Shown piece after piece: positions 22,611 to 61,120 of a stretch of 64,000 nucleotides of DNA; position 1 is the stretch's first letter; every line of letters starts with the position of its first letter. Position numbers and translations under genes: made by a program. Source of the DNA: an uncultured Lachnospiraceae bacterium (lineage in GTDB: Bacteria > Bacillota > Clostridia > Lachnospirales > Lachnospiraceae); the NCBI GenBank assembly GCA_964369775.1, contig CAYJHQ010000004.1, positions 15,030 through 79,029 on the forward strand, written 5' to 3'. Below the pieces are notes generated by a model. That model was not told the DNA's origin and did no database searches. It worked only from the letters and a program-made list of their open reading frames with translations.

Positions 22611-22623
22611 GGAACTCAGTTCC
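22611..22623. promoter_or_regulatory. element palindrome GGAACTSAGTTCC copy 1
   Basis: Perfect 13-bp palindrome adjacent to a terminator T-run. Confidence 0.6.
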
Positions 22624-22629
22624 AAAATT

Positions 22630-22818
22630 CTATTTCGAGGTTAATACAACCTGCTCTTTCTTGCTCATCAGCACCACCGTCACCCATGATGATTGAAATA
22701 ATTTTGACTTTTGGGCCGCGACCTCTCTAGCTCTCTCTTCATTCTCAGCTAATACAACCATCGCTCTATCCTCTCCTATCCCAATCTCTCCTGATCTCTT
22801 CAGTAAAAATACGCTCAT
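22630..22818 (-). CDS. hypothetical protein (62 aa)
   Basis: AAAGGAGAAAAAA RBS. First of the minus-strand cassette series. Confidence 0.45.
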   Translation of the reverse strand: MSVFLLKRSGEIGIGEDRAMVVLAENEERAREVAAQKSKLFQSSWVTVVLMSKKEQVVLTSK

Positions 22819-22931
22819 TTTTTTCTCCTTTGTGTGTTTTATATTATTATAGAAGAAACTCGAAATCCGTGTGTTTTTGCACGGAAGTCAAAAATTCAAA
22901 ACAAAAGCTTTTTAGGGGATGTGGTTTCAAA

Positions 22932-23180
22932 CTACGAGCTCTTTACCTTTTGCAAATAATGCACGCTCGACGTGCTCCTAATTAGTAAAATATCTACAAA
23001 TTTCTGGTCATTCATATAGCACTGTTCAAGCTTTTTCACTTCTTTTGCTGACAAGTGAATTACCCCAGCTACTCGATTGCTTAACTCTACCTTGTTGTTT
23101 CTCAATCTTACTTTCACAACAGATCCAACCATAGGTTTTAATTTTTCTCCCGAAGTGTATAACACCTTATATCTTTCCAT
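22932..23180 (-). CDS. hypothetical protein (82 aa)
   Basis: Preceded by leader CATATTAAAAATAAAAGGA and terminator of upstream cassette. Confidence 0.45.
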   Translation of the reverse strand: MERYKVLYTSGEKLKPMVGSVVKVRLRNNKVELSNRVAGVIHLSAKEVKKLEQCYMNDQKFVDILLIRSTSSVHYLQKVKSS

Positions 23181-23234
23181 CCAATTTACCGTCCTTTTAT
23201 TTTTAATATGTAAAAAAAGAGAGCTTTCGCCCTC

Positions 23235-23690
23235 CTACTTTTTTGAATTATTGATGAAGTTAAATTGGAATACTGCGATTTCGGCAGCTATTTCACCCCT
23301 CCCAGACCTTGTAACTCTGTGGTTTGCTACATAATCTCTAGCTGTTTCATCTGAGTCAGACGTCTTCACCTCCATGCTATCAATTCCGTAACTAGATGCT
23401 TTCTCCAGAATAAATGATTGCATCTCGTCTGGTGCTTCAGACAGCATCAATAGAGACTCCTCGTCATTTAGTATCTCTGGAAATAATTCTAGTTCATCAA
23501 GCAACAATGCAAGCGCCTCTTCATTATCTGCCTTAAAGATTGGAATGAAGCAATGAAATGAATCATTATTTGTAATAGAAAACACAACCTCTGACATTTT
23601 ATTTACAACCCTTTCGCCCACAGCTTTTATTTCTAGATCCCATCCATATAATCCCTTATACAGATCTTTAACTTTCTCTAACTTTTCCAT
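23235..23690 (-). CDS. hypothetical protein (151 aa)
   Basis: Conserved leader TGAAAATAAATTTTAGGAGGA 6 nt before ATG. Confidence 0.55.
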   Translation of the reverse strand: MEKLEKVKDLYKGLYGWDLEIKAVGERVVNKMSEVVFSITNNDSFHCFIPIFKADNEEALALLLDELELFPEILNDEESLLMLSEAPDEMQSFILEKASSYGIDSMEVKTSDSDETARDYVANHRVTRSGRGEIAAEIAVFQFNFINNSKK

Positions 23691-23772
23691 ATTCTCGTCC
23701 TCCTAAAATTTATTTTCAGAGGTAATATGACAAACTATGAAAAAAAAAGAGACGGATTACTCCGCCTCTTGA

Positions 23773-24207
23773 CTATGCGCTCTCCCAAGATGCCTCTGGC
23801 TCATACAGATAGAATCGTTGGTAGCCATTTCCACTTCTGGAAACTCCAAAAGCTGTAGCAGAGCTTACTCTTCCTCCCCGCTCGTCCTTAATAATGATTG
23901 CTGTTTCTTTGATTTCTGTAATTCGAACCATTGATTTATGGCACTCTTTCTCGTCAATAAACCACAAAAGACACCCTCTAACATTATCTAATTCATCCAA
24001 CGATAACGGTCCTGGATATTCCCTTTCAATCTTCTCCACAAGGGCTTCTTTTGCCAGCAGCATTCGGCGAAGCATTATTGTCCAAGAGCCACCGCCTATA
24101 TCTAGCAAATCTGTGATTCCATTGATTTTCATGCACTCAATAATACTTTGCTCAATCAGCATGACCGATTGAACTAATTCATCTCTTTTATTAATATTTT
24201 TTTCCAT
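23773..24207 (-). CDS. hypothetical protein (144 aa)
   Basis: AAAGGAG RBS. Confidence 0.5.
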   Translation of the reverse strand: MEKNINKRDELVQSVMLIEQSIIECMKINGITDLLDIGGGSWTIMLRRMLLAKEALVEKIEREYPGPLSLDELDNVRGCLLWFIDEKECHKSMVRITEIKETAIIIKDERGGRVSSATAFGVSRSGNGYQRFYLYEPEASWESA

Positions 24208-24235
24208 ACAAACACTCCTTTATGCTTATAATATA

Positions 24236-24535
24236 CTACTCGATTGGCTCCCAAGGTGCAATTGGCTCTTCTTCAAAGAATCTATGAACGCCTCTCTCTA
24301 CATTTGCTCGGCTAACTATAAACAAATTAGTCTCAACGCAATGCTGGTCTACATCTTTAATAGAAACAAGACCCTTTGACCGCTCTGCCTCATTTACATA
24401 CCACAGCTCTCTCTTTGTTGTTTTTGCTAATTTTTTGACAGAAATCGGATGAATCACGTCTTTTGTTGAAGAGCTTAGCACCTCTTTTCGTATCGAGTGA
24501 CTGCTACTTGTGTAGCAATATTTTGCTGTATTCAA
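24236..24535 (-). CDS. hypothetical protein (99 aa, TTG start)
   Basis: GGGGGA RBS before TTG. The 15-mer motif lies upstream. Confidence 0.4.
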   Translation of the reverse strand: MNTAKYCYTSSSHSIRKEVLSSSTKDVIHPISVKKLAKTTKRELWYVNEAERSKGLVSIKDVDQHCVETNLFIVSRANVERGVHRFFEEEPIAPWEPIE

Positions 24536-24648
24536 TAGGTATTCCCCCTTTCTTATAATAGATTAACATAAATAAAAAATCTATATTTTTTTGCACGGAG
24601 AGCGTTGTTTCAACAAAAAAAAGGAGCTATACGCCCCTTTTCCTATTT

Positions 24649-26046: not shown

Positions 26047-26059
26047 GGAACTGAGTTCC
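26047..26059. promoter_or_regulatory. element palindrome copy 2
   Basis: GGAACTGAGTTCC between terminator and CATATT box. Confidence 0.6.
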
Positions 26060-27195: not shown

Positions 27196-27969
27196 TTAAC
27201 AATTTCTGGAACTGAGTTCCAATTTTTGATGATTGGATAGCCTTGCTCTTCCGATTTTGCAATATTTCTCTTCTTTTTCTATCCCAATCCATCTTCTGTT
27301 TAAATTTTCTGCTCCTAAGCAAGTCGTAAAGCTTCCTGCTGTGTTATCTAGCACCAAATCACCTTCATTGCTATAGGTCTTAATTAGATATTCTATTAAG
27401 GCAAGTGGTTTCTGGGTAGGGTGAAAGGAATATCTTTGTGTATCTGTGGAAAAAATTTGAATACTTTTGGGATATCGTTTAGTTGAACAATATTCGTGAT
27501 CTCGACTATTTTTTCCGTATACCTCCGTATTAGATTCCTTTTTCTTCTTTGATTTCTTTAATGCGTGACCACTTGTCATCTGAGGATTATAGGTTGGTTG
27601 CTTCCTATAAAAGACGCTGATCAACTCATGATTTCTCATAGGTTGGCGCTTTGCATTGAAATAACCTACACCTTTCACTTTGTCCCAAACCCAGTCGTAT
27701 TTATAGTTTTTAATATTACTTGCCCTCAATGTACTAGAAAATGGCTCCGTTCCAAACAAAACAATAGCCCCATTTTTTTTCACGACTCTATTGTACTGCT
27801 CCCACAAAGGCTCGAACGGTATCACTGTATCCCATTTACACTTCGTGATTCCGTAAGGCAAGTCACAAAGCACCATATCGACACTGTTATCTTCTATCCC
27901 ATTCATAACTTCCAGGCAGTCTCCTTGATAGATGCTGCCAAGCTCCGTGCTGTAATAACTATCTTGCAT
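27196..27969 (-). CDS. orphan DNA methyltransferase (beta-class N6-adenine/N4-cytosine; motif IV DLPY before motif I)
   Basis: Reverse complement of 28035..27196 translates to ...SVDMVLCDLPYG...DNTAGSFTTCLGAENLNRRWIGIE. The track labels this ORF + but only the minus strand gives this reading (CAT at 28033-28035, TTA at 27196-27198). AAGGA RBS before MQDSYY at 27969. Confidence 0.75.
   Translation of the reverse strand: MQDSYYSTELGSIYQGDCLEVMNGIEDNSVDMVLCDLPYGITKCKWDTVIPFEPLWEQYNRVVKKNGAIVLFGTEPFSSTLRASNIKNYKYDWVWDKVKGVGYFNAKRQPMRNHELISVFYRKQPTYNPQMTSGHALKKSKKKKESNTEVYGKNSRDHEYCSTKRYPKSIQIFSTDTQRYSFHPTQKPLALIEYLIKTYSNEGDLVLDNTAGSFTTCLGAENLNRRWIGIEKEEKYCKIGRARLSNHQKLELSSRNC
27208..27220. promoter_or_regulatory. 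element palindrome copy 3
   Basis: GGAACTGAGTTCC. Confidence 0.6.
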
Positions 27970-28000
27970 ATTTTTCATCCTTTTATTTTTAATATGCAAA
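27970..28000 (-). promoter_or_regulatory. representative cassette leader (class B): CATATTAAAAATAAAAGGA
   Basis: Shared by methyltransferase (27969), 22932..23180, 25155..25961. Similar TTAATATG boxes at 32820, 41660, 48513, 51008, 55927, 57938, 60058, 63348 (plus-strand coordinates). Confidence 0.45.
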
Positions 28001-28027
28001 AAGCAAGGCTTGAACCTCGCTTTGTAC

Positions 28028-28216
28028 CTACACATACCCCTTCAATCTCAAATATTGTTTTGTCTTTAGCTCTTCTTTTTCACGAATCGCTAGCTTTGCT
28101 TCTGCCGTTTTGTACGCAACAGCCAACACGCTCTCTGGTAGCGCTTTCACTACTTCTTCTGGTGATGCTGATCCAATCGCCACGCCTAGTCGCTCTTTCA
28201 AACCTTCTTTACTCAT
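28028..28216 (-). CDS. hypothetical small protein, paralogous to the N-terminus of 28311..28952
   Basis: KERLGVAIGSASPEEVVKALPESVLAVAYK aligns with RCRLESATAGSTVEEIARAMPQAMAAAVYK. AAGGGGG RBS. Confidence 0.45.
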   Translation of the reverse strand: MSKEGLKERLGVAIGSASPEEVVKALPESVLAVAYKTAEAKLAIREKEELKTKQYLRLKGYV

Positions 28217-28952: not shown

Positions 28953-29000
28953 TATTTCTTCCTCCTAAAATTTATTTTCACTTATAATATGTGAGTATTT
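28953..29000 (-). promoter_or_regulatory. representative cassette promoter/leader (class A): CATATT box + TGAAAATAAATTTTAGGAGGA leader
   Basis: Minus strand reads CACATATTATAAGTGAAAATAAATTTTAGGAGGAAGAAATA-ATG. The same leader (1-3 mismatches) precedes at least 15 ORFs, e.g. at 23697, 30075, 33246, 35253, 38384, 38587, 40170, 42673, 43880, 58263, 59523. Confidence 0.55.
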
Positions 29001-29009: not shown

Positions 29010-29022
29010 GGAACTGAGTTCC
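29010..29022. promoter_or_regulatory. element palindrome copy 4 (17-bp TTGGAACTGAGTTCCAA)
   Basis: Extended palindrome, 18 nt from CATATT. Confidence 0.6.
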
Positions 29023-29034
29023 AAAAAAGAGAGC

Positions 29035-29361
29035 CTAAGCTCTCTTTCTATACTCTTCAAAATACACTATCTCGCTTCTTTTTTCGTTCCTTGATAGTTT
29101 GATTCGCATCTGAAGCAGCCTCTTTTTCGCAATTTCATATCCTATGCTTGCTCTGAATACACACGACACAAGCCATCCAGTTGTAGCAAGCGCTATAAGT
29201 GCTGGCAAGTCGCTTAAAGCCAGTCTTTGATCCGCCCACGCAGCCACACATATAAATCCAAAAAGTAGCACAGCAGCACTCACAAATTGGCAAAACAGCG
29301 CAAAGCATATCTTTCTCCTTAAGACAATCTCCGTCTCTCTCTCTGATAATTGTAATTGCAT
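29035..29361 (-). CDS. small membrane protein (108 aa)
   Basis: Two TM helices. Confidence 0.45.
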   Translation of the reverse strand: MQLQLSERETEIVLRRKICFALFCQFVSAAVLLFGFICVAAWADQRLALSDLPALIALATTGWLVSCVFRASIGYEIAKKRLLQMRIKLSRNEKRSEIVYFEEYRKRA

Positions 29362-30126: not shown

Positions 30127-30139
30127 GGAACTGAGTTCC
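30127..30139. promoter_or_regulatory. element palindrome copy 5
   Basis: TTGGAACTGAGTTCCAA. Confidence 0.6.
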
Positions 30140-30193
30140 AATCTGCGAGCGCAAGAACGCTTTATGGGGATTAAAAAAGAGAGCCGAAGCTCT

Positions 30194-30985
30194 CTATGTT
30201 AAAGATATTGTCCCTGATTTATCAAGCGTTAAAATGTGATTACCCATAAACTCACTAGCAGAGCTCTGGCGAAGTAGGTTTTTAACTAGATCAAGTGCGT
30301 CTGACTCCGCAATGTCTTTAAATGCCACCCAGCTGTGTATGTCGTTCGCGATCAACTTACAACCATTTGGGTAGGCTTTTAGCAATGACTGAATCCCCTG
30401 CGCAGAAAGGATTGCGGCTGTGCCATATTGTCTTTGCTTGTTTGTCACAAAGTGAAGAATGTCTCCCGCCTCTGGATAAAGCGATGAGATTAAATCAAAG
30501 CTCTCTTCATCTTCTAAGCTGTCTTTCAAGCCTATAATCTCTGGCTCTCCGACGTTGTTCATCGCCGCATCGTGCAGCTCGTCAATGTCAACACCTAGAG
30601 AGTCTAAGCACTCTTGAGAAAGAAGCACTTCTTCTCCATTAACTGAAAGCCCATAGATAAAGCTGTATGGAAGATTTTCCATGTCCTTCTTTACCTTGTG
30701 ATGGTCATTGCTTTCTGATAAAACCATCTTAGGAAACACAGCCTTCATGGCAGCTTCCCATGTGTTTAGCTCGCTTAGTTTCTTCATAACTAAACGTTGT
30801 TTTTCAACTGATGCCTTAATGTGATCCAATAATCCCTGTCTTGAAAATATTCCAGCACAAGGAACTTCAAATCCCTCTTCATCATCAAATACAAATCGAT
30901 ACCCCAATGTTATTCCATTTACAGCGTCAATTTCAGCTAACTCTACCCATGCGTCTGGGTACATTTTTTTAATATCCTCTAACAT
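30194..30985 (-). CDS. hypothetical protein (263 aa)
   Basis: AAGGAGGAATGAAAG-ATG RBS. Confidence 0.5.
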   Translation of the reverse strand: MLEDIKKMYPDAWVELAEIDAVNGITLGYRFVFDDEEGFEVPCAGIFSRQGLLDHIKASVEKQRLVMKKLSELNTWEAAMKAVFPKMVLSESNDHHKVKKDMENLPYSFIYGLSVNGEEVLLSQECLDSLGVDIDELHDAAMNNVGEPEIIGLKDSLEDEESFDLISSLYPEAGDILHFVTNKQRQYGTAAILSAQGIQSLLKAYPNGCKLIANDIHSWVAFKDIAESDALDLVKNLLRQSSASEFMGNHILTLDKSGTISLT

Positions 30986-32855: not shown

Positions 32856-32868
32856 GGAACTGAGTTCC
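32856..32868. promoter_or_regulatory. element palindrome copy 6
   Basis: CGGAACTGAGTTCC. Confidence 0.6.
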
Positions 32869-33301: not shown

Positions 33302-33314
33302 GGAACTGAGTTCC
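33302..33314. promoter_or_regulatory. element palindrome copy 7
   Basis: CGGAACTGAGTTCC. Confidence 0.6.
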
Positions 33315-34228: not shown

Positions 34229-34305
34229 TTTTGACAACCAGGTACCAATCCCTTAGTTTTTAATGTACAAAAAAAAGAGAGCCTAAGCTCTCTTGTAATG
34301 AAAAA

Positions 34306-35309: not shown

Positions 35310-35322
35310 GGAACTCAGTTCC
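35310..35322. promoter_or_regulatory. element palindrome copy 8
   Basis: TGGAACTCAGTTCCA. Confidence 0.6.
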
Positions 35323-35831: not shown

Positions 35832-37066
35832 GGCACATTTCTATATTTTAGTCATCGGAGCAGCCCGTGCGATACGGGGTACAGGAGGGTAGTCCTGTAC
35901 CCCGTCCAAACGGGCTGCACAAGTAAAGTAATTGCCCACTTAAATTGTCGCTGTACAACGATTGAGATTGACTTTTGTAAATGACACATTTCTCTAATTT
36001 TCTCATATAGAGGGATGAGGACGAGGCAGGTCCCAGACTGGGAATCTGTGGACCTAGAACATCCTCATCCATCTCTTAAATAATTACCTCTGCCTAATCT
36101 CACACTGTGTAGTGTTTATTGTTTGATAGTGGCGGAAAATACGGCACATTTCTATATTTTAGTCATGCATACCGTCGAAGAGCTGAGGCGTATCCAGATG
36201 GTTCTGGATAATCCTTCGTGAGACGACGGTAATCTAAACACTTTCCCTCCACCCATCTCACTGTGCGGTGAATTTGAAGCAAAATAGTAATTTGGCACAT
36301 TTCTATATTTTGATCATATCGACATCTCTGATGGATTTAATCCAGTAGTGCATACTGGACTAAATCTAGAAAGAGATGTTTAGTAAATAATTACTCATCT
36401 AGCTTCACACTGTGCTGTGTAATGGTAAGCACTCTGCTCTTGCAGTGTCTTTCTTTATCCTCTAGGTTATTTCCGATATAGGCATCTATGATGCTGTTAT
36501 CGGAAATGAGCGCGAAAGGATCCCGGGGGTCAGTATGAGCTCCTGGATCCTTGAGCATTAAGAGTTAAGTGCTCAAATGGGACACACCGTATAATTTCGT
36601 GAAGGTCTGATATTTCAATGCATTTCTATAGTACATTCATATAGATGACGCATGAGCCGTGGCTCCCTGGATGGATCCAGGGCTCCACGATGCAGGCGTC
36701 ATATTGTTAAAGCGAATATTTAACACTTCACTGCTCGCATAAGCAAAAATAATTCAAGGCGATTCATCTAAACGGCACATCTCTATAGTATGTTCATATA
36801 ACGCCCCTTCCTGCCTGCAGGAGCTGGAGAGGTCTCCAGCTAAAGCAGGGAAGAAGGGACGGCATTAAAGATATTTAGCCTTGTCGCCTTTGTCCGTGCT
36901 GACTTTTTTGATTACTCAGTGTTTTTTTTGGGATTTCTATAGTCTGATCATTGGAAGATCAGGGCAGCTTCTGTCCGCCTCCTAGGAGGGAGGGTGATGG
37001 AAGCAGCCCTGATCTGAAATAAATTAAAACACATTGCCAATCATTTGCTTCCCATAGCATAGGCTC
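35832..37066 (-). repeat. tandem array of 7-8 units (about 150-160 bp each): conserved 24-nt box + unique GC-rich perfect hairpin, between the RT gene and the next gene
   Basis: Boxes GGCACATTTCTATATTTTAGTCAT (or variants) at 35832, 35983, 36143, 36294, a degenerate copy near 36456, 36620, 36774, 36930. On the minus strand the boxes read ATGACT-N17-CATATT (promoter-like). CACWGTG heptamers in units 2-4. Unique 8-15-bp-stem hairpins in every unit. Confidence 0.7.
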
Positions 37067-38638: not shown

Positions 38639-38651
38639 GGAACTGAGTTCC
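38639..38651. promoter_or_regulatory. element palindrome copy 10
   Basis: GGAACTGAGTTCC upstream of small ORF/RT. Confidence 0.6.
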
Positions 38652-38701
38652 CGAGATCAAAGGCCTTTATAGGGACAAAAAAAAGAGAGCGTGAGCTCTC
38701 T

Positions 38702-40227: not shown

Positions 40228-40240
40228 GGAACTCAGTTCC
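40228..40240. promoter_or_regulatory. element palindrome copy 12
   Basis: CGGAACTCAGTTCCG. Confidence 0.6.
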
Positions 40241-42675: not shown

Positions 42676-42754
42676 CTTTCTTCCTCCTAAAATTTATTTT
42701 CAGTGGTAATATGAAAAATTGGTAAAAAAAGAGAGCTTACGCGCTCTCTCTTCA

Positions 42755-43033: not shown

Positions 43034-43187
43034 CTTTTACACCTCCTGAAATTTCACCTTCAAAATCAATATGGCGGATATTACGAAACAAAGAAGCGGA
43101 GTTGAACTCCACCCCTAATCATATATCAAAAAAAAAGACAGAGCTTTTGCTCCATCTTTCAAAAATAAATTAACCATCTCGTGATAC

Positions 43188-43200
43188 GGAACTGAGTTCC
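43188..43200. promoter_or_regulatory. element palindrome copy 13
   Basis: CGGAACTGAGTTCCG. Confidence 0.6.
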
Positions 43201-43875: not shown

Positions 43876-43932
43876 ATTTTTCTTCCTCCTAAAATTTATT
43901 TTCAAGGAGAATATGTCAGGTTTTAGAAGATT

Positions 43933-43945
43933 GGAACTCAGTTCC
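43933..43945. promoter_or_regulatory. element palindrome copy 14
   Basis: TTGGAACTCAGTTCCAA. Confidence 0.6.
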
Positions 43946-44739: not shown

Positions 44740-44752
44740 GGAACTCAGTTCC
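44740..44752. promoter_or_regulatory. element palindrome copy 15
   Basis: CGGAACTCAGTTCCA. Confidence 0.6.
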
Positions 44753-44807
44753 AAAACACAAAGTTCTTACAGGGACAGAAAAAGAGAGCTTTCGCTCTCC
44801 TTTTTGG

Positions 44808-47800
44808 TTAAACCCTCTTTATCTTCAAAATAAATCCTGCGACAAATAATAATAAGGTCATTATTGCAATGTATAAGTAAATAGGGCTTGAATCACTTGT
44901 TTGCAATGCTTCAATCATGCCTGCCTCTTCTACTGATTCATCTTTGACATCCTCTTCTGTTGAATCCTCTGTTGAGTTCTCGCCAGCATCCCCGTCAGGT
45001 ATTTCTCCCTCTGGTGCTGTTGGAACCTCATCTGTCTCTTCGCCTGTCTCTTCATCCGGTACCTCTCCCTCTGGACCTGTCGGCGCTTCTACCTCTGGAA
45101 TATCTCCTACCTGATGCTCATTATCTCCAAGCTCTGGTAGCGTTGGATCCCCCTCATTTGGCTCTTCTGGATCTGTCGGCTCTGTCGGAATCTCACCTAC
45201 TTGATGCTCGTTGTCTCCCATCTCTGGCAATGTTGCCTCATCATAGAATGAAACAACTGCAGTAGCTTCTGCTAAAAGATCTACGTCTGAATTGATTGGA
45301 TCTTTCGCTACAACAGCAGCAACACTTTCGTAAATGCCTGTTTCTAACTGTGTGTACTCGTAAGTAATTGTTACAACCTCACCCCCCAAAAGCCCTTTAG
45401 TTAAGACAAGGCTTTCATTCAATTCAAACTCCACTATCTCGCCTGTTGACGATGTAAGCTTTAAGTTCTTGGCTATTGCAAATGTCGCACCTGACACCAT
45501 TACAGAATTAAGAGCTCTCGGACTCTTGTTTTCAATTGCGATTGTGTATTTTACAACACCTCCAACCTTCATTTCTGCCACATCACTAGTCATTGTCATA
45601 TCAACCCTTGATGCCTCTAGTGAATGGAATACAACCGTTGTCTCTGCTGAATCTGTCAGCTCCTTACTTGGAATATATGGGTTTTTCGCTGTAACAGTCG
45701 CCGCTGTAGTTACTGCTTGAGGCGTCTTGCTTGTTGCGTCAAACGAAATTAACGCCTTAGCCCCCGCTTTAATCTCCTGCTCTATTACGACTGTGCTTCC
45801 GTTTAATGTGAACGCAACCTCTTCCCCATCTACTAAAACTTTTAGATTTGTTGCCGTTTTAAATAAATCATCTAAAACCTCTACACCTTCTAATGCTACA
45901 TCGTTTGGATTTTCAACTATCGTCTGATACTCCACAATTTCATTCACAGTGGCTTCTGTCTTATTTGAACTCTTCTTAATTTCAATAATTGGCTCATCAA
46001 CAAAGTTTATTGTTGCTTTTCCATTCGCTTTTGCGCTTACTGTTCCAAATTTGGCAGCAACATCCACTGTATTTTCGTAAGACCCTGCTGTATCTTGAGT
46101 ATAGTCATAAGTGATTGTAACCCTCTTTTCAATATCAGTTAGACTCATATTCTCTCCATCCAATGAATAATTTGCACCATTAACAACAATGTTTGTCGCT
46201 TTTATGAATGCTTGATCTGACACAGTCATGGAGTGAGCATTGAATAAATTTTCATCCAAAATCTCAATCTCAAATGTTGCATTTTCTCCCACTAACACTG
46301 TCTCTTGTTTTGCAATCTTTGATACAGCAATTACAGGATCCACAAATGCTACGCGAGTGCTCGCTTCATCAGAAAGCATAATCCCATCAACTGTAGGGTG
46401 TGGCGCCTCTACTTTAACAGCATTTACAAACTCTCCTGCTTCGGATTGTTCGTGGTCATAATTGATTGTAACAACCTCTCTCGCTAAAAGACTATCTAGC
46501 GTAAGATTACCCTCAGTATCTGTTGAAAATGGAACGATGCCTCGCTCTGTTGAGTTTAACGACACCCCATCTAATTTAAAAGGAATTGTGTCGTCTACAA
46601 AAACGCTAGAAATCTCAACATCGCTATGATTCTCAACTGTTACTGTATATCCAACAGGCGAACCACTCATTGCTTCCTTCACACTTGCCTCTTTATCCAC
46701 CGTGATTGCGATATCATCATGAAATATAGTTGTAACATCGCCCATTTCAATCAGTGTTAAGCTGTCATTATTTGGATCTAACACCTCTGCTTGTGTTGCA
46801 CTCACAAACTCTCCTGCCTTATCGTGTGCGTATTTGTAAGTGATCACTGCCGCTTCTCCCATCAAGATTGAAGGTATTGTAAAAGCATTCCCTTCTACTG
46901 TAACATCTATCTCTTCCCCATTCACTAACACGACCATATCAGCCGCATTTGGAAAAGCCTTGTCTGTAACTAAAACATCTGCTAAGTCAAACCCGCCATC
47001 ATTTGTTATCGTTACTGTATATGACGCCTCATCGCCAAGCATGTATGCATCTTTTTCTGCCGTCTTTTTCACTGTAAATGATGCTGGCTTTACAAATTCT
47101 ACATCTACCGAATCTGTTCCTGCCAATTCACTGCCTTTTACAAGTGGATTTGTAGCCGCTACGCTAGCAGTGTTGGTAAATACACCTAAATCTTTTTGCG
47201 TGTATTTGTAAGTAACTGTAGCGTACCCACTTGCCTCTATAGGTTCATGGAGTGTGATTGTATCGTGAATTACTGATGAATGCCATCCACCACACGCAAA
47301 AACGCCTGCCATTACTTGCTCTCTAATATGCTCCTCTGCAAAGCCAGTAATATCAGCTCCGCATCCATTACAAAGCTGCACATTTCTACCTCTTTTGTGA
47401 GTGATGTACTCGCCCTCTGCATCTTCAACAACTGCTGTAATATCAGCACTAGCTAAAACAGGATCAGAAATCACCACTTCGTCAATATCAGTAGCGCTCT
47501 CATTCGTTACTTTTATTGTATAAGTAACATCACTTCCCGCAGGCAAAGACTCTTTATTAGATGTCTTTTGAACTGTCATTATCGCATCTGGCAAAACAGT
47601 CACTCTAGCCTCAGAGTCTTCCATCAACGGCTCGTGCTTATCTAAGTATGTAGCGGAAACCTCAATCGTATTTGCTATAACGCTTGTCACTTCAGCATCG
47701 CTTGGGATTGTGTAATCATAATTGATTGTAATTACATCACCAGGATTGACAACCTCTGTAATTACAAGGTCGCGTCCGATTATTTCATATAATATGCCCT

Positions 47801-48359
47801 CAGTCCCGTTTGATACAACTAGATTTTCCACCGTATCAAAATCAATAAGAGTATCAGCAACAACTGTGTTTGAATACTCTGCCTTTCCAGCATTTGTTAT
47901 CACCACCTCATAAGTAACCACTTCACCTCTATAAGCTTCTGGCTTTACAATTTTTGCAACTTCAAGGCCTGGTGTTATTTCTTTCCAATGCCCAAATATT
48001 AATTCGTCTGAAGTTACCGCTTGCGTAAAATCAAAATGATCCTCCGGTTGTTCGATTGGCTGCTCTAACAAAGACCACCCTTCAAAATAGAAAGTCTTTT
48101 CATTGACTTCTACAATATCGCCAGTGCTATAATTTGGCGTTGTTGGAACTCCTGGCTCTGCCAACTCTTCCGCTGGCTGCTCTGTTATATTGTGACCCTC
48201 TGGAAGTCCTAAATGCTCATATTGTATTGTTATACTAGTCGTTGTACTTCTCATGCTCGCCTCTACCAACGAGCCTCCAATACCCGCTGACAAAACTGTG
48301 GCCACAGCTAAGGCACACGCAGTGCCCTTTTTAAAAATTGTCTTTATTCTATTTTTCAT
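44808..48359 (-). CDS. large surface adhesin with DUF11-type repeat domains, acidic LPE(L/M)GDNEHQVG(E/D)IP repeats and C-terminal sorting-signal-like tail
   Basis: Signal peptide, repeated TYT..V.N.G domains. C-terminus ...ALQTSDSSPIYLYIAIMTLLLFVAGFILKIKRV (motif + TM + basic tail). Confidence 0.75.
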   Translation of the reverse strand: MKNRIKTIFKKGTACALAVATVLSAGIGGSLVEASMRSTTTSITIQYEHLGLPEGHNITEQPAEELAEPGVPTTPNYSTGDIVEVNEKTFYFEGWSLLEQPIEQPEDHFDFTQAVTSDELIFGHWKEITPGLEVAKIVKPEAYRGEVVTYEVVITNAGKAEYSNTVVADTLIDFDTVENLVVSNGTEGILYEIIGRDLVITEVVNPGDVITINYDYTIPSDAEVTSVIANTIEVSATYLDKHEPLMEDSEARVTVLPDAIMTVQKTSNKESLPAGSDVTYTIKVTNESATDIDEVVISDPVLASADITAVVEDAEGEYITHKRGRNVQLCNGCGADITGFAEEHIREQVMAGVFACGGWHSSVIHDTITLHEPIEASGYATVTYKYTQKDLGVFTNTASVAATNPLVKGSELAGTDSVDVEFVKPASFTVKKTAEKDAYMLGDEASYTVTITNDGGFDLADVLVTDKAFPNAADMVVLVNGEEIDVTVEGNAFTIPSILMGEAAVITYKYAHDKAGEFVSATQAEVLDPNNDSLTLIEMGDVTTIFHDDIAITVDKEASVKEAMSGSPVGYTVTVENHSDVEISSVFVDDTIPFKLDGVSLNSTERGIVPFSTDTEGNLTLDSLLAREVVTINYDHEQSEAGEFVNAVKVEAPHPTVDGIMLSDEASTRVAFVDPVIAVSKIAKQETVLVGENATFEIEILDENLFNAHSMTVSDQAFIKATNIVVNGANYSLDGENMSLTDIEKRVTITYDYTQDTAGSYENTVDVAAKFGTVSAKANGKATINFVDEPIIEIKKSSNKTEATVNEIVEYQTIVENPNDVALEGVEVLDDLFKTATNLKVLVDGEEVAFTLNGSTVVIEQEIKAGAKALISFDATSKTPQAVTTAATVTAKNPYIPSKELTDSAETTVVFHSLEASRVDMTMTSDVAEMKVGGVVKYTIAIENKSPRALNSVMVSGATFAIAKNLKLTSSTGEIVEFELNESLVLTKGLLGGEVVTITYEYTQLETGIYESVAAVVAKDPINSDVDLLAEATAVVSFYDEATLPEMGDNEHQVGEIPTEPTDPEEPNEGDPTLPELGDNEHQVGDIPEVEAPTGPEGEVPDEETGEETDEVPTAPEGEIPDGDAGENSTEDSTEEDVKDESVEEAGMIEALQTSDSSPIYLYIAIMTLLLFVAGFILKIKRV

Positions 48360-48617
48360 TTTCTTTCCTTTTCTTGTAGCGAACTGTACACATCCGCTAC
48401 TTGATTAATCATTTTCAAGTGTCTGTTTGTGAACGTTCGAAAGCCTTACCCCGAATCCTTATATGATGTTTCCTTTTTCATCCATTTCCCTCTTTTCTGT
48501 ATTTGTCTTTAATATGTTGAAATTCACAGTGCAAAGGGAATATTTTCATAGTGTAGTTTTTTTAGAAGCTGTACAACCATTGAACGACAAAAAAGAGAGC
48601 TCTCGCCCTCTTTCTTA

Positions 48618-50975
48618 TTAGAGATTTTCTCTTTTTAATATAAAGCCTAGTGTAAACAATAATGCTATCATTGCCACTATATATAAGTAAATCATACTTG
48701 AGTCTCCAGTTTGCAAAGTCTCAATTTGCTCAGTATTCTTCGCATCTTCGGATCCCAGGTCCGACTCTTCCTCTAAGAATTCTTCTGCATCCGTATCAGG
48801 TCTTACCTCTTGCTGACCATCTGGAATATCTCCTACTTGAACTTCATCCCCATCCACCTCTGGAAGCGTTGGGATTGAGGGGATTTCTCCCACTCCGTGC
48901 TCTTCATCTTCTAGTTCTGGTAATATAGGCAAGCTAGGAATATCTCCTACCTCCCCTTCACCCTCCTCTAACTCTGGCAGTGTTGGCAAGCTAGGAATCT
49001 CGCCTACCTCTCCTTCACCCTCCTCAAGCTCTGGAAGTGTTGGAATTGAGGGGATTTCCCCAACCTCATACTCTTCATCTTCTAGTTCTGGAAGCGTTGG
49101 GATTGATGGGATTTCCCCAACTTCTCCCTCTCCTTCTTCAAGCTCTGGCAGTGTTGGAATTGAGGGTATCTCTCCAACCTCATACTCTTCTTCTTCTAGT
49201 TCTGGCAGTGTTGGCAAGCTTGGCTCCTCTTTGTTGTTTGTCGCTAAAAACACAAATAGACTGCTTACCAGCTCGCTATAATCAATAGTAAATTCATTGC
49301 TAGGATTTGTATAGTCTTTTACCGTCAAGGCTTCATCAAAGCCAATCGGTTGTTTGTAGAGCTTTAATGACTCTAAATCATATCCCTCGGCAGCCTTTGC
49401 TTCTACTAGTCTATATGTGCCCTCGTCTAGCTTAGTAAATACAATTTCTCCATTCGAATCCGTTGTGCCATTTACTAATTCACCCTTTCTCTCGTAAGGA
49501 ACCCAATCCTCACCTTCCTTTTTTTCGAGCGAAAACTCTGCACCACTAATCAATTCTTCGGTTTCAGCATCTGCCTTTACAAGCCTTACTTTTCCTTCAT
49601 TTGTTGCATCCACATACCCATCCGCATTTGCCACCTTTATAGATGCTGTCGATGTGTGATTTTTACTAGTGCCCTCAGCATAAACATTGTTTGTATATAT
49701 CTTCCCTGGCTCAACAACAGTCAGTAAATCAAGAGCGTATGAGATGACATGACCATTCCCCCATGAGTCAATGGCAAATGTTTGATCTCCAATTGTATAA
49801 CTTGGCGTATCATACCCAATTGCCTTCATCATAACAATAAGCTCCTCTTCTGAGTAGGCGTTTGAGGCTCTAAGCTTTGCTTCAATATCCTCGTTATTCT
49901 CACCATACACCAACCCATTGCTTCCAATATCGCCTAGGTTCACAATCGCCATTTGTTTGTCACTACTAAGTCCAAGCAAAGGCGTCTCGCTGCTTGAAAT
50001 GCGTTGTTTCCATTCATCTTTTGTTTCAGAATCTGCTTGATCTGATCGTTCAATTGTGAGTTTGTCGCCAGACCCATAAATCATACTCATGCCGCCTTCT
50101 TCCCCTAAAGGCCTGTATAGCACTGTACTTGCCGAAATACTCTCAAAATACTGTGTTCCTTCTACTTCGTCGTAGATAACTATGTTGTCTCGTGGCGCTA
50201 CAGAATCAATATTGTTATAGTCCATAATCTCAGCGTACAACTCAAGTCCGAAATTTATACTCCACATGATTTTGTTTGATTGCCATGTTAATCGCCCCCA
50301 TTTGTGAAGCTCTGGCTTTGTTCCCGTGTGACCAGCTCCTGGAAAAATTGGAGCTATCTCGTCAGGATCTTTAATGTCTGGATTTGTAATTGTAACATCT
50401 CCTGGGGTAATGTCTCCAAACTCCAAAGGAAATGTCACCTCTTTTACGTCTACATCGCTTACTCGACCATATGCGCCAAATCCTCCATTTCTTGATAAAA
50501 GATCGGTAATGTTACTATGGGCTACAAATTTCATTGACTCGTTATTCGTAATTGTCCAAAAGCCAAGCAATACACCGCTTTTATATAACTCCTTATACAC
50601 TGATGAATCTGGGTTATCTGGATGGGTGTCTTCACCTCCACTGACCTCAAAATCATAGCTAAAATATTCACTTGGCAACTGAATATCGAAATAATCACCC
50701 TCATTTACGATTACATCGTCTGGAATTGACCAATTTAGATTCATCTGAATCAAAAAGCCTTCCTCTAAAGGCTTATGCCCTTCTACCAATACATTGTCCT
50801 CAATTACTGGAAACCATGTACTCGAATTAGACGCCTCCATATTTACTACAATATCAACATGCTCTCCTATATCTCTCCCTGATACCTTTTCCTCTTTTGC
50901 CACCCCTATCATACTAACAGACGTAACCATCGCCATGATCAGTAAGCGGCTAATAATTTTTGTTATTTTCTTCAT
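48618..50975 (-). CDS. surface adhesin/pilin-like protein with Cna-B (SpaA isopeptide-type) domain, seven LPTLPELEEGEGEVGEIPS repeats and C-terminal sorting-signal-like tail
   Basis: Signal peptide. GAEFSLEKKEGED...TTDSNGEIVFTKLDEGTYRLVEAKAAEGY Cna-B signature. C-terminus ...TLQTGDSSMIYLYIVAMIALLFTLGFILKRENL. Confidence 0.75.
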   Translation of the reverse strand: MKKITKIISRLLIMAMVTSVSMIGVAKEEKVSGRDIGEHVDIVVNMEASNSSTWFPVIEDNVLVEGHKPLEEGFLIQMNLNWSIPDDVIVNEGDYFDIQLPSEYFSYDFEVSGGEDTHPDNPDSSVYKELYKSGVLLGFWTITNNESMKFVAHSNITDLLSRNGGFGAYGRVSDVDVKEVTFPLEFGDITPGDVTITNPDIKDPDEIAPIFPGAGHTGTKPELHKWGRLTWQSNKIMWSINFGLELYAEIMDYNNIDSVAPRDNIVIYDEVEGTQYFESISASTVLYRPLGEEGGMSMIYGSGDKLTIERSDQADSETKDEWKQRISSSETPLLGLSSDKQMAIVNLGDIGSNGLVYGENNEDIEAKLRASNAYSEEELIVMMKAIGYDTPSYTIGDQTFAIDSWGNGHVISYALDLLTVVEPGKIYTNNVYAEGTSKNHTSTASIKVANADGYVDATNEGKVRLVKADAETEELISGAEFSLEKKEGEDWVPYERKGELVNGTTDSNGEIVFTKLDEGTYRLVEAKAAEGYDLESLKLYKQPIGFDEALTVKDYTNPSNEFTIDYSELVSSLFVFLATNNKEEPSLPTLPELEEEEYEVGEIPSIPTLPELEEGEGEVGEIPSIPTLPELEDEEYEVGEIPSIPTLPELEEGEGEVGEIPSLPTLPELEEGEGEVGDIPSLPILPELEDEEHGVGEIPSIPTLPEVDGDEVQVGDIPDGQQEVRPDTDAEEFLEEESDLGSEDAKNTEQIETLQTGDSSMIYLYIVAMIALLFTLGFILKRENL

Positions 50976-51130
50976 TTGAAATTTCCTTTCTATTATCTAT
51001 CTTTATTAATATGTAAAATTTCACATGCTTTGTTGCATTAGAAAAAAGAATACATACTCTCGCTATCATCCAAGCATCCGCACCTATCAAATCTTATCCC
51101 TGTAAGGCTACTGGTTAGTGACCCTCTTTT

Positions 51131-51143
51131 GGAACTCAGTTCC
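51131..51143. promoter_or_regulatory. element palindrome copy 16
   Basis: TTGGAACTCAGTTCCAA. Confidence 0.6.
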
Positions 51144-51603
51144 AAACACGTAAAAAAGCGAAGCTTATTAGCCTCGCTCTTCTCTATGGTCGTTTTTGAC
51201 CGCTGGCAGCAGTATTTCGATCCTACTACCTATATATTGAAAAATTTAGGAGTACAGATTTGCAAGTGATTTCAACGACTGAATCTTAGGAGGATTTTGT
51301 CGTTCCGAAAGTCCCTCGCTCAACTGTTAAATGTATTATATCATAAGCAAATTATATCAGATTTTTGCACGGAAGCTATTTTGTAGAAATACAGAGTCGA
51401 ATTGGTGGGTTTTTAATTCTTTGTGTTTGAATTATCTGTCTATTCCACGTGTTCAGAGTTGTGGCTTTTGAATAGTCTCACAATTGCGCCGTTTTTAATG
51501 ATTGCGAAAGCAATACAGAGGCTTGTATTTACACGTTTGCTATTGTTTTAGAGCCAAACTTAAGTATATTCGATACTCCAATCCCATCTTAGTCAGTGAA
51601 TTA

Positions 51604-51616
51604 GGAACTGAGTTCC
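51604..51616. promoter_or_regulatory. element palindrome copy 17
   Basis: AGGAACTGAGTTCCAA. Confidence 0.6.
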
Positions 51617-51674
51617 AAAATCCGTCTTTCAACGAACAAAAAAAAGAAAGAGCTTTTAGCTCTTCCTCTTGTTT

Positions 51675-54159: not shown

Positions 54160-54160
54160 T

Positions 54161-55607: not shown

Positions 55608-55620
55608 GGAACTGAGTTCC
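55608..55620. promoter_or_regulatory. element palindrome copy 18
   Basis: CGGAACTGAGTTCCA. Confidence 0.6.
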
Positions 55621-55625
55621 ACTCC

Positions 55626-58259: not shown

Positions 58260-58318
58260 GCGATAAATCCTCCTAAAATTTATTTTAAACCAATATGAAA
58301 AATTTCATAAAAAAGAAC

Positions 58319-58331
58319 GGAACTCAGTTCC
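58319..58331. promoter_or_regulatory. element palindrome copy 19
   Basis: CGGAACTCAGTTCCG. Confidence 0.6.
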
Positions 58332-58350
58332 GCCTTTCGCTTTAGTAAAA

Positions 58351-59514: not shown

Positions 59515-59585
59515 TTTATCTTCCTCCTAAAATTGTTTTTCAAAAGGAATATGTGGAATTAAGGTAAAAAAGTATGCAAAAAGGC

Positions 59586-59598
59586 GGAACTCAGTTCC
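59586..59598. promoter_or_regulatory. element palindrome copy 20
   Basis: GGCGGAACTCAGTTCCGCC (19-bp palindrome). Confidence 0.6.
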
Positions 59599-59612
59599 GC
59601 CTTCTACCTCTC

Positions 59613-60035
59613 TTATTCAACCGCGTTCAAGTCAGCTAATCGAAACACAATACCTCTGCAATACTTCTCGCCATCTTCTAGTACAGAGAAATACTCAGCT
59701 TCAATGTCCTCTGCAAATTCGAACATCCAAGGATATTCCCCATTCCCATACTCGCACTTTAGTGGCACTCCAGCCTTTTTAAGTTCGCGATAATATTTGC
59801 AGTGACCGCATTCCTCATCTCGGTCTTCCATAACGCCACATTTTGTCAACAATATAGTACTTGGATTATAGCAATCCACTTCATCTTCGATCGCCCCTCG
59901 AAGCTCTACTAAGTCATCCGAAGCCCCAAAGACAACCACTAATCCATTTGATTTGGCTTCTCTTTCTAAATCCTCTGTCATTTCTTGTCTGTACTCGCAG
60001 CCATCTAGTTGTCTTGCTAATTCTTTAATGTCCAT
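59613..60035 (-). CDS. hypothetical Cys-containing protein (140 aa)
   Basis: ORF with 15-mer/leader upstream. Confidence 0.45.
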   Translation of the reverse strand: MDIKELARQLDGCEYRQEMTEDLEREAKSNGLVVVFGASDDLVELRGAIEDEVDCYNPSTILLTKCGVMEDRDEECGHCKYYRELKKAGVPLKCEYGNGEYPWMFEFAEDIEAEYFSVLEDGEKYCRGIVFRLADLNAVE

Positions 60036-60380
60036 TTACGTACCATCCTTTTTTTCTTTAATATGGCAAATCACAAGCCTTTATCGTATCCCCAAAAAGA
60101 CTTTTATATCCCAGACTCATCGGGGTTTCACGCTCTTCATTGTTTAATCTAGTATCTTTCTTAGAAAAACAAAACCACTACTTTCTCAAGTAGTGGCCTG
60201 TTCAAAAAAATGGATGCGTGCTCTGCGCACCCGTAAAAGAAATCTGGCGATATCGCCATTCAAGATAATATTATGAAATTATTCATAAAAATTATTTCCA
60301 ACACTAATATGCAGAATTTCCTAAATATAAAAATTGTTTTTTTGATTTGTATATTTATTTTTTTAAATTCGTAGAAAAAC

Positions 60381-60393
60381 GGAACTGAGTTCC
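60381..60393. promoter_or_regulatory. element palindrome copy 21
   Basis: CGGAACTGAGTTCCA. Confidence 0.6.
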
Positions 60394-60403
60394 ACTTCTC
60401 TTG

Positions 60404-60919
60404 CTACCTCTCCCCATTTGTGAAAGCCTGTACTGATGTTTTTACCTCGTTTCCAGCCATATCTATAAGCACTTGTCGCACATTCGAGTCTATAAACCCT
60501 TGCTCATGATGCTCGTACTCTCCATCTGCTATAACAACCTCATAGCTAGTCACTCCGCTTTCTGCCTCTGCTACAAACTCATGAGTCGCCCCAAAGGAAG
60601 AACCATGATAATTTAGCTCTACACCAGATTTATCTATCAAATCAATATCCATAGTGTATGTTTCGCCTGGAACTAACCCTGAATACGTATATTCATACAC
60701 AACGGCGACATCTTTCGCCTCCTCTGATTCATGCTCATGTTCATGCGAATGCTCTTCTTCGTGACTATGCTCAGCTTCTGTTGCTACCGACCCTGAATCA
60801 CTTCCACCACACGCTGTTAGGCCAACCGCCATCCCAGCAATTATAATAGCCATAGCAGCGACCTTTCCTTTTATTATCATTTCTTTCTCAATAATTTGGA
60901 TTAATGTTTTCACTTTCAT
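60404..60919 (-). CDS. lipoprotein with His/Glu-rich metal-binding stretch
   Basis: Lipobox GLTACGG. EAEHSHEEEHSHEHEHESEE. AGGAG RBS. Confidence 0.55.
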   Translation of the reverse strand: MKVKTLIQIIEKEMIIKGKVAAMAIIIAGMAVGLTACGGSDSGSVATEAEHSHEEEHSHEHEHESEEAKDVAVVYEYTYSGLVPGETYTMDIDLIDKSGVELNYHGSSFGATHEFVAEAESGVTSYEVVIADGEYEHHEQGFIDSNVRQVLIDMAGNEVKTSVQAFTNGER

Positions 60920-61107
60920 TTTTAAACTCCTACTCTCTTTCTAATTTTCGTCCTTGACTATTGTATTATACCTCATGGTGAAAGACTACTTATTTTTGCA
61001 CGGAAGTTGTTTTTGGCAATTTACATATGAACAAAATCGCTACCTATTTCTCACAATATATAATATCGCATCTATGTCCTCTGCGGTGACTTCCAACTCT
61101 CATGAGC

Positions 61108-61120
61108 GGAACTGAGTTCC
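61108..61120. promoter_or_regulatory. element palindrome copy 22
   Basis: CGGAACTGAGTTCCA. Confidence 0.6.

Follow-up and report, generated by a model that had tools for sequence, protein, structure and literature searches.

A perfect 13-bp palindrome at the gene junctions of an integrated gut mobile element: a possible dispersed operator associated with terminators

Why a mobile element should carry the same perfect palindrome at one gene junction after another, and what might read it, is the question raised by a 64,000-nt stretch of contig CAYJHQ010000004.1 from an uncultured Lachnospiraceae bacterium (this whole stretch is referred to below as the window). To the left of ~17 kb the window is chromosomal, with tRNA-Thr, a thiamine pyrophosphate (TPP) riboswitch, a T-box, tRNA-Met and tRNA-Val; from there to its right end it belongs to a mobile element, integrated and of conjugative type, in a low-GC Gram-positive host. 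The element part comprises a Topo III gene (17090-19306, - strand) preceded by a CATATT box, a tyrosine recombinase gene (int, 20351-21520, + strand) and, to the right of int, an array of ~50 co-oriented genes on the - strand, all genes between 22.6 and 64 kb sharing one direction. The palindrome, GGAACTSAGTTCC, has 22 exact matches in the window, all of them within 22,611-61,120, and does not occur in 100 dinucleotide-preserving shuffles, i.e., 0 copies are expected. The initial annotation, which proposed a single operator controlling more than 20 promoters, was accurate as to the number, positions and non-random nature of these copies. It also described the motif as absent from 20 kb of core chromosome; there is indeed none in 1-21,500, but the chromosomal part extends over ~17 kb only, Topo III and int being part of the element.

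The answer tentatively preferred here, with somewhat less than even confidence and as read from the sequence, is that YGGAACT-S-AGTTCCR may be a dispersed operator or roadblock, i.e., a sequence-specific double-stranded site for a putative symmetric (dimeric) protein. The sites mark the joints between the small transcription units of the cargo or "establishment" array of the element, lying just past the upstream terminator or forming the terminator tip and often 17-55 nt upstream of the next CATATT promoter, a class devoid of a -35 element. Protein bound at the palindrome would block read-through from the upstream unit (as roadblock or insulator) and, at sites close to a promoter, would in addition keep RNA polymerase out; in this way all units of the array would be held under common control and released, e.g., on transfer or induction. 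In the simplest reading, this is a protein-binding double-stranded site preferentially embedded in, or just beyond, the terminator of each junction. Element-wide operator or insulator sites are of a known kind, whereas their coupling to terminators is unusual. As for the single dimeric regulator first suggested, a dimeric protein acting at many junctions is the best single explanation; the proposal is reasonable but unproven.

The conservation of the motif is of the perfect-or-absent type, since a search allowing up to two mismatches adds one site only (GGAACTCGGTTCC at 21529, one mismatch; 0.77 expected by chance). In aligned junctions the 13-mer stands as an invariant island, its neighbours varying both in sequence and in length, and this invariance across divergent junctions and across elements sharing almost no genes indicates selection on the sequence and not merely on the ability to pair. 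Read on the + strand, 10 copies have a central C and 12 a central G; the centre is never A:T and bears no relation to gene direction; because the remainder is a perfect palindrome, C- and G-centred copies represent one double-stranded sequence in two orientations. Among the distinct copies from metagenome loci described below, the two orientations of the central pair relative to transcription number ~7 and 4. The base flanking the 13-mer is a pyrimidine in 40 of the 44 half-sites, giving YGGAACTSAGTTCCR, and yet the two flanking bases are often unable to pair (C/A in seven copies), so that each half-site looks constrained independently. Watson-Crick extension of the dyad by at least 1 bp is seen in 12 of the 22 copies and reaches a maximum of 5 bp; the earlier remark that the flanks often extend the dyad applies to these copies and not to the others. 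Equal orientations, a constant G:C centre and non-complementary pyrimidine flanks fit a symmetric dimer reading double-stranded DNA and are less natural for an RNA loop, in which a preference for either UGA or UCA would be expected. The symmetry of the motif, the independence of its orientation from gene direction and its confinement to the element part of the window all agree with the first description.

Intergenic DNA accounts for only 18% of the region and contains 19 of the 22 copies, 16 of which are located 5-58 nt past the upstream stop codon. The remaining three are intragenic (20 and two had been counted before, the third being the copy at 27208): 27208-27220 occupies the last eight codons of an N6_N4 methylase open reading frame (ORF; 27196-28035) and encodes LELSS in a non-conserved C-terminal tail; 37985-37997, in the reverse transcriptase (RT) gene, encodes AELSS in a hypervariable loop that is one codon longer, by an insertion, than in most of the 39 homologues aligned; and 39125-39137 encodes LELSS in a 347-aa ORF. 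All three lie in the frame that encodes ELSS and arose at spots tolerant of change (the variable loop of RT, the methylase tail and the 347-aa ORF). They have no T-run or stem extension, which suggests that the sequence is kept for reasons other than termination.

The distance from the palindrome to the next CATATT box is 17-24 nt in nine copies, up to 32 nt in 11 and up to 55 nt in 14, so the slot 17-24 nt before CATATT, which was thought to be always the same, is occupied by nine copies only. No CATATT is found near the copies at 22611, 43188, 51131, 51604 and 61108 or near those in the RT gene and the 347-aa ORF, and the spacings observed (17, 18, 21, 24, 29, 32, 44, 52, and 55 nt) show no helical phasing. 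In long intergenic regions, five copies are close to the stop codon (22611, 43188, 51604, 60381, and 61108) and two are close to the next start (26047 and 51131). The palindrome is tied more closely to gene 3' ends than to promoters. This association, the copies that double as terminator hairpins and the recurrence of the motif in other gut mobile elements were all absent from the initial annotation.

The CATATT box itself belongs to a promoter module, with leader and Shine-Dalgarno sequence, that precedes ~25 genes. After CATATT come six bases, most of them pyrimidines, then (T)GAAAATAAATTTTAGGAGG and, 5-9 nt further on, ATG; the module has no -35 element and as a rule follows closely on a terminator T-run. 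Genes on both strands carry it, int and the Topo III gene among them (e.g., 23700-23729, 28962-28991, 42684-42713, and 43886-43915 on the - strand; 20314, 21566, and 22245 on the + strand; overall range 19338-63845), and it may define a class of promoters that depend on an activator or on a sigma factor of non-standard type. Roughly half of the modules have no palindrome and are situated ~1-13 nt behind a terminator T-run; the palindrome is, therefore, not a component of the CATATT promoter. The module is also present in unrelated gut mobile elements (L121-L135, L174). In L174, a related element with an RT homologue, CATATT promoters follow that element's own standard terminator, AGACCTCTTCGGAGGTCT, and no palindrome occurs. 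A leader hairpin sequestering the Shine-Dalgarno sequence, at which single folds had hinted, was discarded after RNAalifold predicted no consensus pair on 17 leaders.

These relations make it most improbable that the palindrome is the -35 element of an element-specific sigma factor of the extracytoplasmic function (ECF) kind or an SOS operator of the LexA/ImmR type, as the initial annotation had proposed on account of the resemblance of GGAAC to ECF -35 elements and to the Cheo half-site. ECF promoters combine a GGAAC -35 with a CGTC-type -10 located 16-17 nt downstream, in one orientation; here the GGAAC arm and the -10-like box lie 25-32 nt apart (at least 25 nt counted from the end of the arm), the box reads CATATT and is not an ECF -10, both arms are equally conserved and both orientations are used. 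A -35 role of any kind is contradicted by the unphased spacing of 17-55 nt, by the absence of the palindrome from about half of the ~25 CATATT promoters and by the presence of at least eight palindromes without a promoter. In each of the 22 copies 3 nt separate the half-sites, whereas a 4-nt spacer (GAAC-N4-GTTC) defines the LexA/Cheo type.

The association with terminators takes two forms. About eight copies (26047, 40228, 58319, 59586, 60381, 44740, 32856, and 33302) combine a hairpin with a T-run on the sense strand, a combination not found in the intragenic copies or in those behind a separate terminator. At the junctions that have no separate terminator the palindrome tips a longer stem, which is followed by the T-run. 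Thus, 26047-26059 is the tip of a 12-pair hairpin with CATATT 55 nt on; 40228-40240, located 8 nt past the GGDEF-EAL stop, forms the sole terminator-like hairpin there (12 pairs) with CATATT 24 nt on; 58319-58331, 19 nt past the stop of the HAD gene, has the terminator-like arms GGCGGAAC..GTTCCGTT and CATATT 21 nt on; 59586-59598, 14 nt past a stop codon, has GGCGGAAC..GTTCCGCC followed by TTTTT and CATATT 32 nt on; and 60381-60393, 10 nt past a stop codon, gains eight more sense-strand pairs with G-U included, the next gene being 345 nt on. About 11 copies stand directly behind an independent canonical terminator, where they show little or no stem extension and a 13-mer that is equally perfect. 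The location just after a terminator T-run, as originally described, is correct for these ~11 copies and overlooks the ~8 that are themselves terminator-like hairpins.

Copies abutting a terminator T-run include 29010-29022 (a separate terminator; CATATT 18 nt on), 32856-32868 (CATATT of the SPFH gene 29 nt on), 35310-35322 (CATATT 24 nt on) and 43933-43945 (CATATT 17 nt on), while 33302-33314 stands behind a terminator with CATATT 21 nt on. In three cases a further short sequence separates the terminator from the palindrome: TCCCCATAAAG at 30127-30139 (54 nt past the DUF5688 stop, CATATT 17 nt on), TCCCTATAAAG at 38639-38651 (50 nt past the stop of the 347-aa ORF, CATATT 17 nt on) and TCCCTGTAAGA at 44740-44752 (55 nt past the stop of a DUF11 adhesin, CATATT 24 nt on). 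The copy at 55608-55620 follows a stop codon by 5 nt and precedes CATATT by 44 nt. Among the copies with no promoter nearby, 22611-22623 lies between convergent genes, 6 nt past the stop codon that closes ORF 22630-22818 and directly beside a bidirectional terminator, with no promoter downstream; 43188-43200 is 48 nt past a stop codon and upstream of a canonical terminator, the next CATATT being 114 nt away; 51131-51143 is found in a ~700-nt non-coding stretch, 10 nt past a terminator T-run and 155 nt before the start of a SpaA-domain gene; 51604-51616 is 58 nt past a stop codon and behind a terminator; and 61108-61120 is 23 nt past the stop of a predicted winged-helix ORF (61144-61539), the next gene being 188 nt on. 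The one-mismatch copy GGAACTCGGTTCC (21529-21541) comes directly after the int stop, forms a terminator-like hairpin (GGTGGAAC..GTTCCGCC plus TTTTTT) and precedes by 23 nt the CATATT of a 202-aa gene on the + strand. A variant palindrome, GGAGTTCAACTCC, occupies the same slot at 43098-43110, before the CATATT of a 92-aa gene; its loop is that of GGAACTSAGTTCC and both arms are changed with pairing kept. This is a single example, which could be a compensatory variant or a coincidence.

Terminators of the array are themselves standardized. Terminator-like hairpins are enriched 2-3 fold (38 vs 12.7 and 25 vs 11.3 expected), whereas matches to sigma-70-type promoters are not (34 vs 50 and 44 vs 50), and a second standard part, the terminator stem AGAGAGC-N4-GCTCTCT, occurs in 11 copies against 0.12 expected (range 23218-55971; e.g., 29028-29045, 30178-30195, 34276-34293, and 38684-38701). 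This stem is often the terminator that stands before copies of the palindrome. That L174 has AGACCTCTTCGGAGGTCT in place of AGAGAGC-N4-GCTCTCT suggests concerted evolution of intergenic modules. Another short sequence, TCCCYRTAARR, is present in four copies against 0.39 expected (30160-30170, 38665-38675, 44765-44775 (-), and 51097-51107 (+)), three of them between terminator and palindrome. Within the copy at 51097, which has the sequence CTTATCCCTGTAAGG, lies TTATCCC, the heptamer to which Reg576 binds on plasmid p576.

The palindrome is not restricted to the window. A strict pattern (palindrome, 15-26 nt, CATATT, 16-30 nt, AGGAGG) was absent from viral contigs and from 185,579 species represented by a single genome each, and was found in 15 metagenome stretches, several of them labelled human gut, with a GC content of 27-43%. 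In these, every copy of the 13-mer caps a hairpin of the AAAGC...GCTTTT or AAATC...GATTT type, which adds 4.6 Watson-Crick pairs on average; a T-run follows, and CATATT comes 20-26 nt downstream. The loci encode SSB, N6 and C5 methylases, Topo III, DUF5688, DUF4942, a RecD2-like helicase, LPD11, AAA_28, and HAD proteins, a gene content of the leading or establishment-region type. Only three of their genes recur in the window, namely those for DUF5688, for Topo III (30% protein identity) and for the methylase (44%, the highest value), the palindrome lying 3' of the DUF5688 gene both in the window and in L128. In a second genome scan, the extended hairpin AGCGGAACTSAGTTCCGCT matched 33 genome stretches. 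Lacrimispora amygdalina, Clostridium boliviensis and a Paenibacillaceae metagenome-assembled genome (MAG) share a conjugative element with three copies of the hairpin, which flank the gene for the coupling protein of the type IV secretion system (T4SS) and a DUF6674 gene; the lower stems read ATGAGC/GCTCAT and ATGAAC/GTTCAT, in addition to a G-U intermediate. Many of the other matches were single copies in unrelated phyla and are regarded as chance, which is to be expected because the collection holds very many terminators; they do not point to a universal element.

No match was obtained when 25 kb of the array was compared by megablast with annotated plasmids and phages; a 31-nt hairpin query against plasmids gave chance matches only, as did the 15-nt pattern in viral contigs (single matches), and the three papers in which one or both written forms of the 13-mer appear do not deal with bacteria. 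Going by these comparisons of sequence, the 13-bp site is common to unrelated gut mobile elements, and it appears to have been undescribed so far. The observation is stronger than the initial annotation held, because the motif is conserved in other elements.

The same relatives provide much of the support for a rival explanation, considered possible though appreciably less so than a protein-binding site, according to which the motif acts in RNA as the standard apex of intrinsic terminators or intercistronic hairpins and is perhaps bound by an antiterminator, a processing nuclease or a stabiliser. An RNA role is in line with the ~8 window copies that provide the sole terminator-like hairpin of their junction, with the enrichment of such hairpins in the array, with the AAAGC..GCTTTT-type hairpins and T-runs of all metagenome copies, with lower stems that co-vary through G-U intermediates on the sense strand, and with the L137-type element, in which the hairpin lies between T4SS genes of one operon. 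However, the loops UGA and UCA occur equally often, and neither A nor U is ever found at the centre; 11 perfect copies are found just beyond the T-run of an independent terminator, where little transcript is expected; the three intragenic copies show neither stem extension nor T-run; and structure alone leaves 12 invariant stem/loop positions across unrelated elements unexplained.

Several findings weigh against the double-stranded operator, and some of them in favour of RNA. When G-U pairs are allowed, the flanks form on average 2.95 extra pairs on the sense strand and 1.18 on the antisense strand (Wilcoxon P = 0.003), and they pair with their own partners better than with shuffled ones (2.95 vs 1.88, P = 0.009), which suggests a role as RNA terminator hairpin in a subset of copies. 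In the relatives the motif always tips a longer hairpin, the lower stem of which co-varies (AAAGC/GCTTT, AAATC/GATTT, ATGAGC/GCTCAT, and ATGAAC/GTTCAT), with G-U intermediates on the sense strand in several hairpin copies; furthermore, an uncultured Eubacteriales MAG has several hairpin copies beside ordinary metabolic genes. The spacing to promoters is unphased and many sites have no promoter. Finally, no ParB/KorB, ribbon-helix-helix (RHH), Xre or classical helix-turn-helix family was detected in the ORFs scanned in the array, and neither of the two regulators first nominated fits. The 131-aa winged-helix ORF (61144-61539) is an orphan among 5.8 billion proteins, its only match being the same gene with a later start on the source contig, and the profile of the family of the 103-aa ORF (22271-22582) matches no palindrome-bearing locus.

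With regard to the protein itself, the 131-aa ORF gives weak matches to MarR/ArsR-type regulators and is an unlikely candidate, since it has no relative whereas the palindrome is common to many unrelated elements. For the 103-aa ORF the model, also weak, is winged-helix/Xis-like, and the ORF belongs to a small family (79 clusters) whose profile matches ORFs in prophage loci with related integrases and without the palindrome; this family travels with the integrase and not with the motif, and the ORF is likewise unlikely to encode the regulator. Among the ~50 window ORFs scanned with Pfam, PHROGs or NCBIfam there is no ParB-type domain, and no RHH-like small ORF was recognised in the array. An all-against-all BLAST of the window and the palindrome-bearing loci showed Topo III, the methylase, DUF5688 and an integrase as the only genes in common with the window. 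If such a factor exists, its gene probably lies beyond the window or belongs to the host.

The position of the hairpins at gene 3' ends also brings to mind repetitive extragenic palindromic (REP) sequences. An unlikely, but not negligible, alternative is that the palindrome is a REP-like or concertedly evolving repeat spread by a hairpin-specific enzyme (HUH/Y1-type) or by gene conversion among standardised intergenic modules, with no regulatory role of its own. Both orientations at gene 3' ends, the perfect-or-absent distribution, the copies beside ordinary genes in the Eubacteriales MAG, the IS200/IS605 genes in two related metagenome loci and the fact that related elements have each their own standard terminator (AGACCTCTTCGGAGGTCT in L174, AGAGAGC-N4-GCTCTCT with 11 copies in the window) would be accounted for in this way, as would the arrays of Alicyclobacillus ferrooxydans (L138, L140, L143, L145, L150, L159, L165), tandem with a period of 52 bp, in which GTAGCGGAACTGAGTTCCGCTAC contains the same 13-mer within a REP-like hairpin starting with GTAG. 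Nevertheless, the conserved unit is just 13-15 nt with unrelated flanks, no Y1_Tnp match was found among the window ORFs scanned, the 17-kb chromosomal part of the window has 0 copies, and the intragenic copies resemble in-frame local changes and not 13-nt insertions. Ordinary terminators are not conserved in sequence, and REPs are at least 20 nt long, genome-wide and linked to RAYT. Both resemble the present motif in forming hairpins at gene 3' ends in both orientations, sometimes (as do BIMEs) with roles in termination or mRNA stability; they differ from it in that the 13-nt core is here invariant, confined to the element part of the window and also present without hairpin extension.

The 3' location of 16 of the 19 intergenic copies is compatible as well with a recombination site at cassette boundaries (integron-like or of another site-specific system), by which each cargo unit would carry a 3' site for insertion or excision. 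A tyrosine recombinase gene lies at the end of the array with a near-copy of the palindrome at its stop codon, the cargo is highly variable, and DUF5688 is followed by the palindrome in two elements; RT homologues at ~60% identity occur in arrays without the palindrome, with neighbours that differ between arrays. This proposal is nonetheless rather improbable. The sites are in both orientations, whereas the genes between 22.6 and 64 kb are unidirectional; Int reaches 49 bits with the NCBIfam model of integron integrases, for which the cut-off is 265, and its nearest relatives are prophage integrases (43-45% identity) in loci without the palindrome; the 6-1-6 layout of the 13 bp leaves no 6-8 bp overlap region of the sort used by tyrosine recombinases; every unit has its own promoter; and no case was found of one cassette in two contexts bounded by the palindrome. 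The attC sites of integrons span 57-141 bp, are imperfect palindromes that all face one way and depend on IntI, and the cassettes have no promoter. The array is like these in having a palindromic element at the 3' end of each cargo gene beside a tyrosine recombinase gene, and unlike them in its 13-bp perfect core, mixed orientation, CATATT module per unit and lack of an IntI-type integrase. In three genome loci (L161, L142, and L156) the extended hairpin is found beside small serine recombinase genes; in L161 (Mediterraneibacter glycyrrhizinilyticus, 3171-5572) it lies between an integrase with 27% identity to the Int of the window and a resolvase. Positions are inconsistent between these loci and the link was judged coincidental.

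The hairpin might instead act on the transferred single strand as a signal at which priming or transcription begins, allowing genes to be expressed early in the recipient, by analogy with Frpo/ssi sites and with the hairpin promoters of the phage N4 virion RNA polymerase. The leading or establishment context (co-oriented ArdC-N, orphan methylase and RNase H, with SSB in relatives), the lack of enrichment of sigma-70-type promoters and the geometry of a 5-bp stem with a 3-nt loop, readable from sequence, are consistent with such a signal. It is rather improbable that this is its function, as random orientation would give two different loops on the transferred strand, many CATATT genes have no palindrome, some copies are in T4SS operons or inside genes, and no primase or dedicated polymerase is seen in the window. 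A broader idea, speculative and not very probable, is that the palindrome marks an undescribed control system, widespread in conjugative elements of gut Firmicutes, in which a conserved factor would read the 13-mer at each junction and link the end of transcription of a cargo unit to the activity of the -35-less CATATT promoter that follows; in its radical form, the 5-bp/3-nt hairpin would be extruded on the incoming single strand as a sequence-specific start signal, and each cargo gene would get its own immediate-early expression in the recipient.

The dispersed operator preferred here has counterparts in other systems. The palindromic OB sites (core TTTAGCGGCTAAA) dispersed over RK2 are bound by KorB, which exerts long-range silencing (PMC11790492). 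As in the window, OB of the IncP-1 plasmids RK2/RP4 is a 13-bp palindrome with a central G or C, identical at many places on a conjugative element (PMC11790492). KorB acts as a common silencer of many operons and needs no fixed promoter phase, since it slides from its sites. OB sites are promoter-proximal, distal and intragenic, and a similar dispersal is seen here, with 14 copies within 55 nt of CATATT, five intergenic copies without a nearby promoter and three intragenic ones. The two systems differ in operator (TTTAGCSGCTAAA vs GGAACTSAGTTCC) and in the host, here Gram-positive; no ParB/KorB-family gene was detected among the ~50 window ORFs scanned, and the present site is tied to gene 3' ends, often doubles as terminator hairpin and occurs 22 times in 38 kb. 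The matS site bound by the dimeric MatP in the enterobacterial Ter macrodomain is a 13-bp 5-3-5 palindrome (GTGAC-RNY-GTCAC) dispersed in about two dozen copies over one domain. Length, 5-3-5 geometry, copy number and confinement to one domain are thus similar, whereas the role of MatP-matS is organisational and not transcriptional, its sequence is unrelated and it operates on Gram-negative chromosomes.

Conjugative plasmids of the pLS20 family provide a further parallel. Reg576 represses four establishment-gene promoters on p576 (PMC6294495), and establishment regulons have been defined by shared upstream sequences (PMC8708921). The regulons of p576 (Reg576/EGeRS2) and pLS20 (EGeRS1) resemble the present array in being Gram-positive and conjugative, with variable establishment genes (ardC etc.) distributed in several units and a shared sequence before each (PMC6294495; PMC8708921). 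In the element, the CATATT module, the palindrome or both are common to the units with establishment-type genes (ArdC-N, orphan methylase, RNase H, SLOG/DprA-like, and Topo III). On the other hand, Reg576 has four sites, at which a dual TTATCCC heptamer is placed in a strong sigma-A promoter, the autoregulated gene of this RHH repressor being part of the regulon, and EGeRS1 consists of structured regions of 420-750 bp; the window has a 13-bp palindrome at ~22 junctions in addition to CATATT promoters with no -35, and no RHH repressor was found.

Genes for defence, anti-defence and resistance travel on the conjugative elements of gut Firmicutes. One invariant 13-bp site in unrelated elements would offer a practical handle for finding their regulator, could define its regulon in metagenomes by sequence alone and could test for KorB-like, element-wide silencing logic in Gram-positive elements. 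Units made of terminator, palindrome, -35-less CATATT box and strong leader are, in addition, of interest as natural insulated expression units.

The genes of the array encode an orphan N6_N4 methylase, the RT, ArdC-N with a peptidase domain, GGDEF-EAL, SPFH, DUF5688, DUF3232, RNase H1-like, SLOG/DprA-like, AAA_28, HAD, DUF2130, and DpnD/PcfM-like proteins, as well as two large surface proteins with DUF11, SpaA, and TQ-ester domains. This content is of the accessory, leading or establishment type of Gram-positive conjugative elements; T4SS genes do not occur within the window. The regions 44808-50975 and 60404-60919 include the two very large surface proteins (DUF11 repeats; SpaA plus Big_8) and a TQ-ester-domain protein, and these proteins are probably adhesins serving mating-pair formation. 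The RT (37067-38377) belongs to a very large family (>4,400 matches at E<1e-20), whose members are found in long arrays of tiny co-oriented ORFs on gut metagenome contigs (L172, L173, and L177). Downstream of the RT gene there is ~1 kb of non-coding DNA (36073-37066), and a further 700 nt (50976-51674) without a convincing ORF contains a terminator and copies of the palindrome on either side (51131 and 51604); a search of the non-coding stretches of the array against Rfam matched no family, and 50976-51674 may encode a small RNA or a small protein. At the other end of the window, no ORF longer than 77 aa ends within 1-6500 and the GC skew points to the - strand, so that a very large gene probably runs past the left end.

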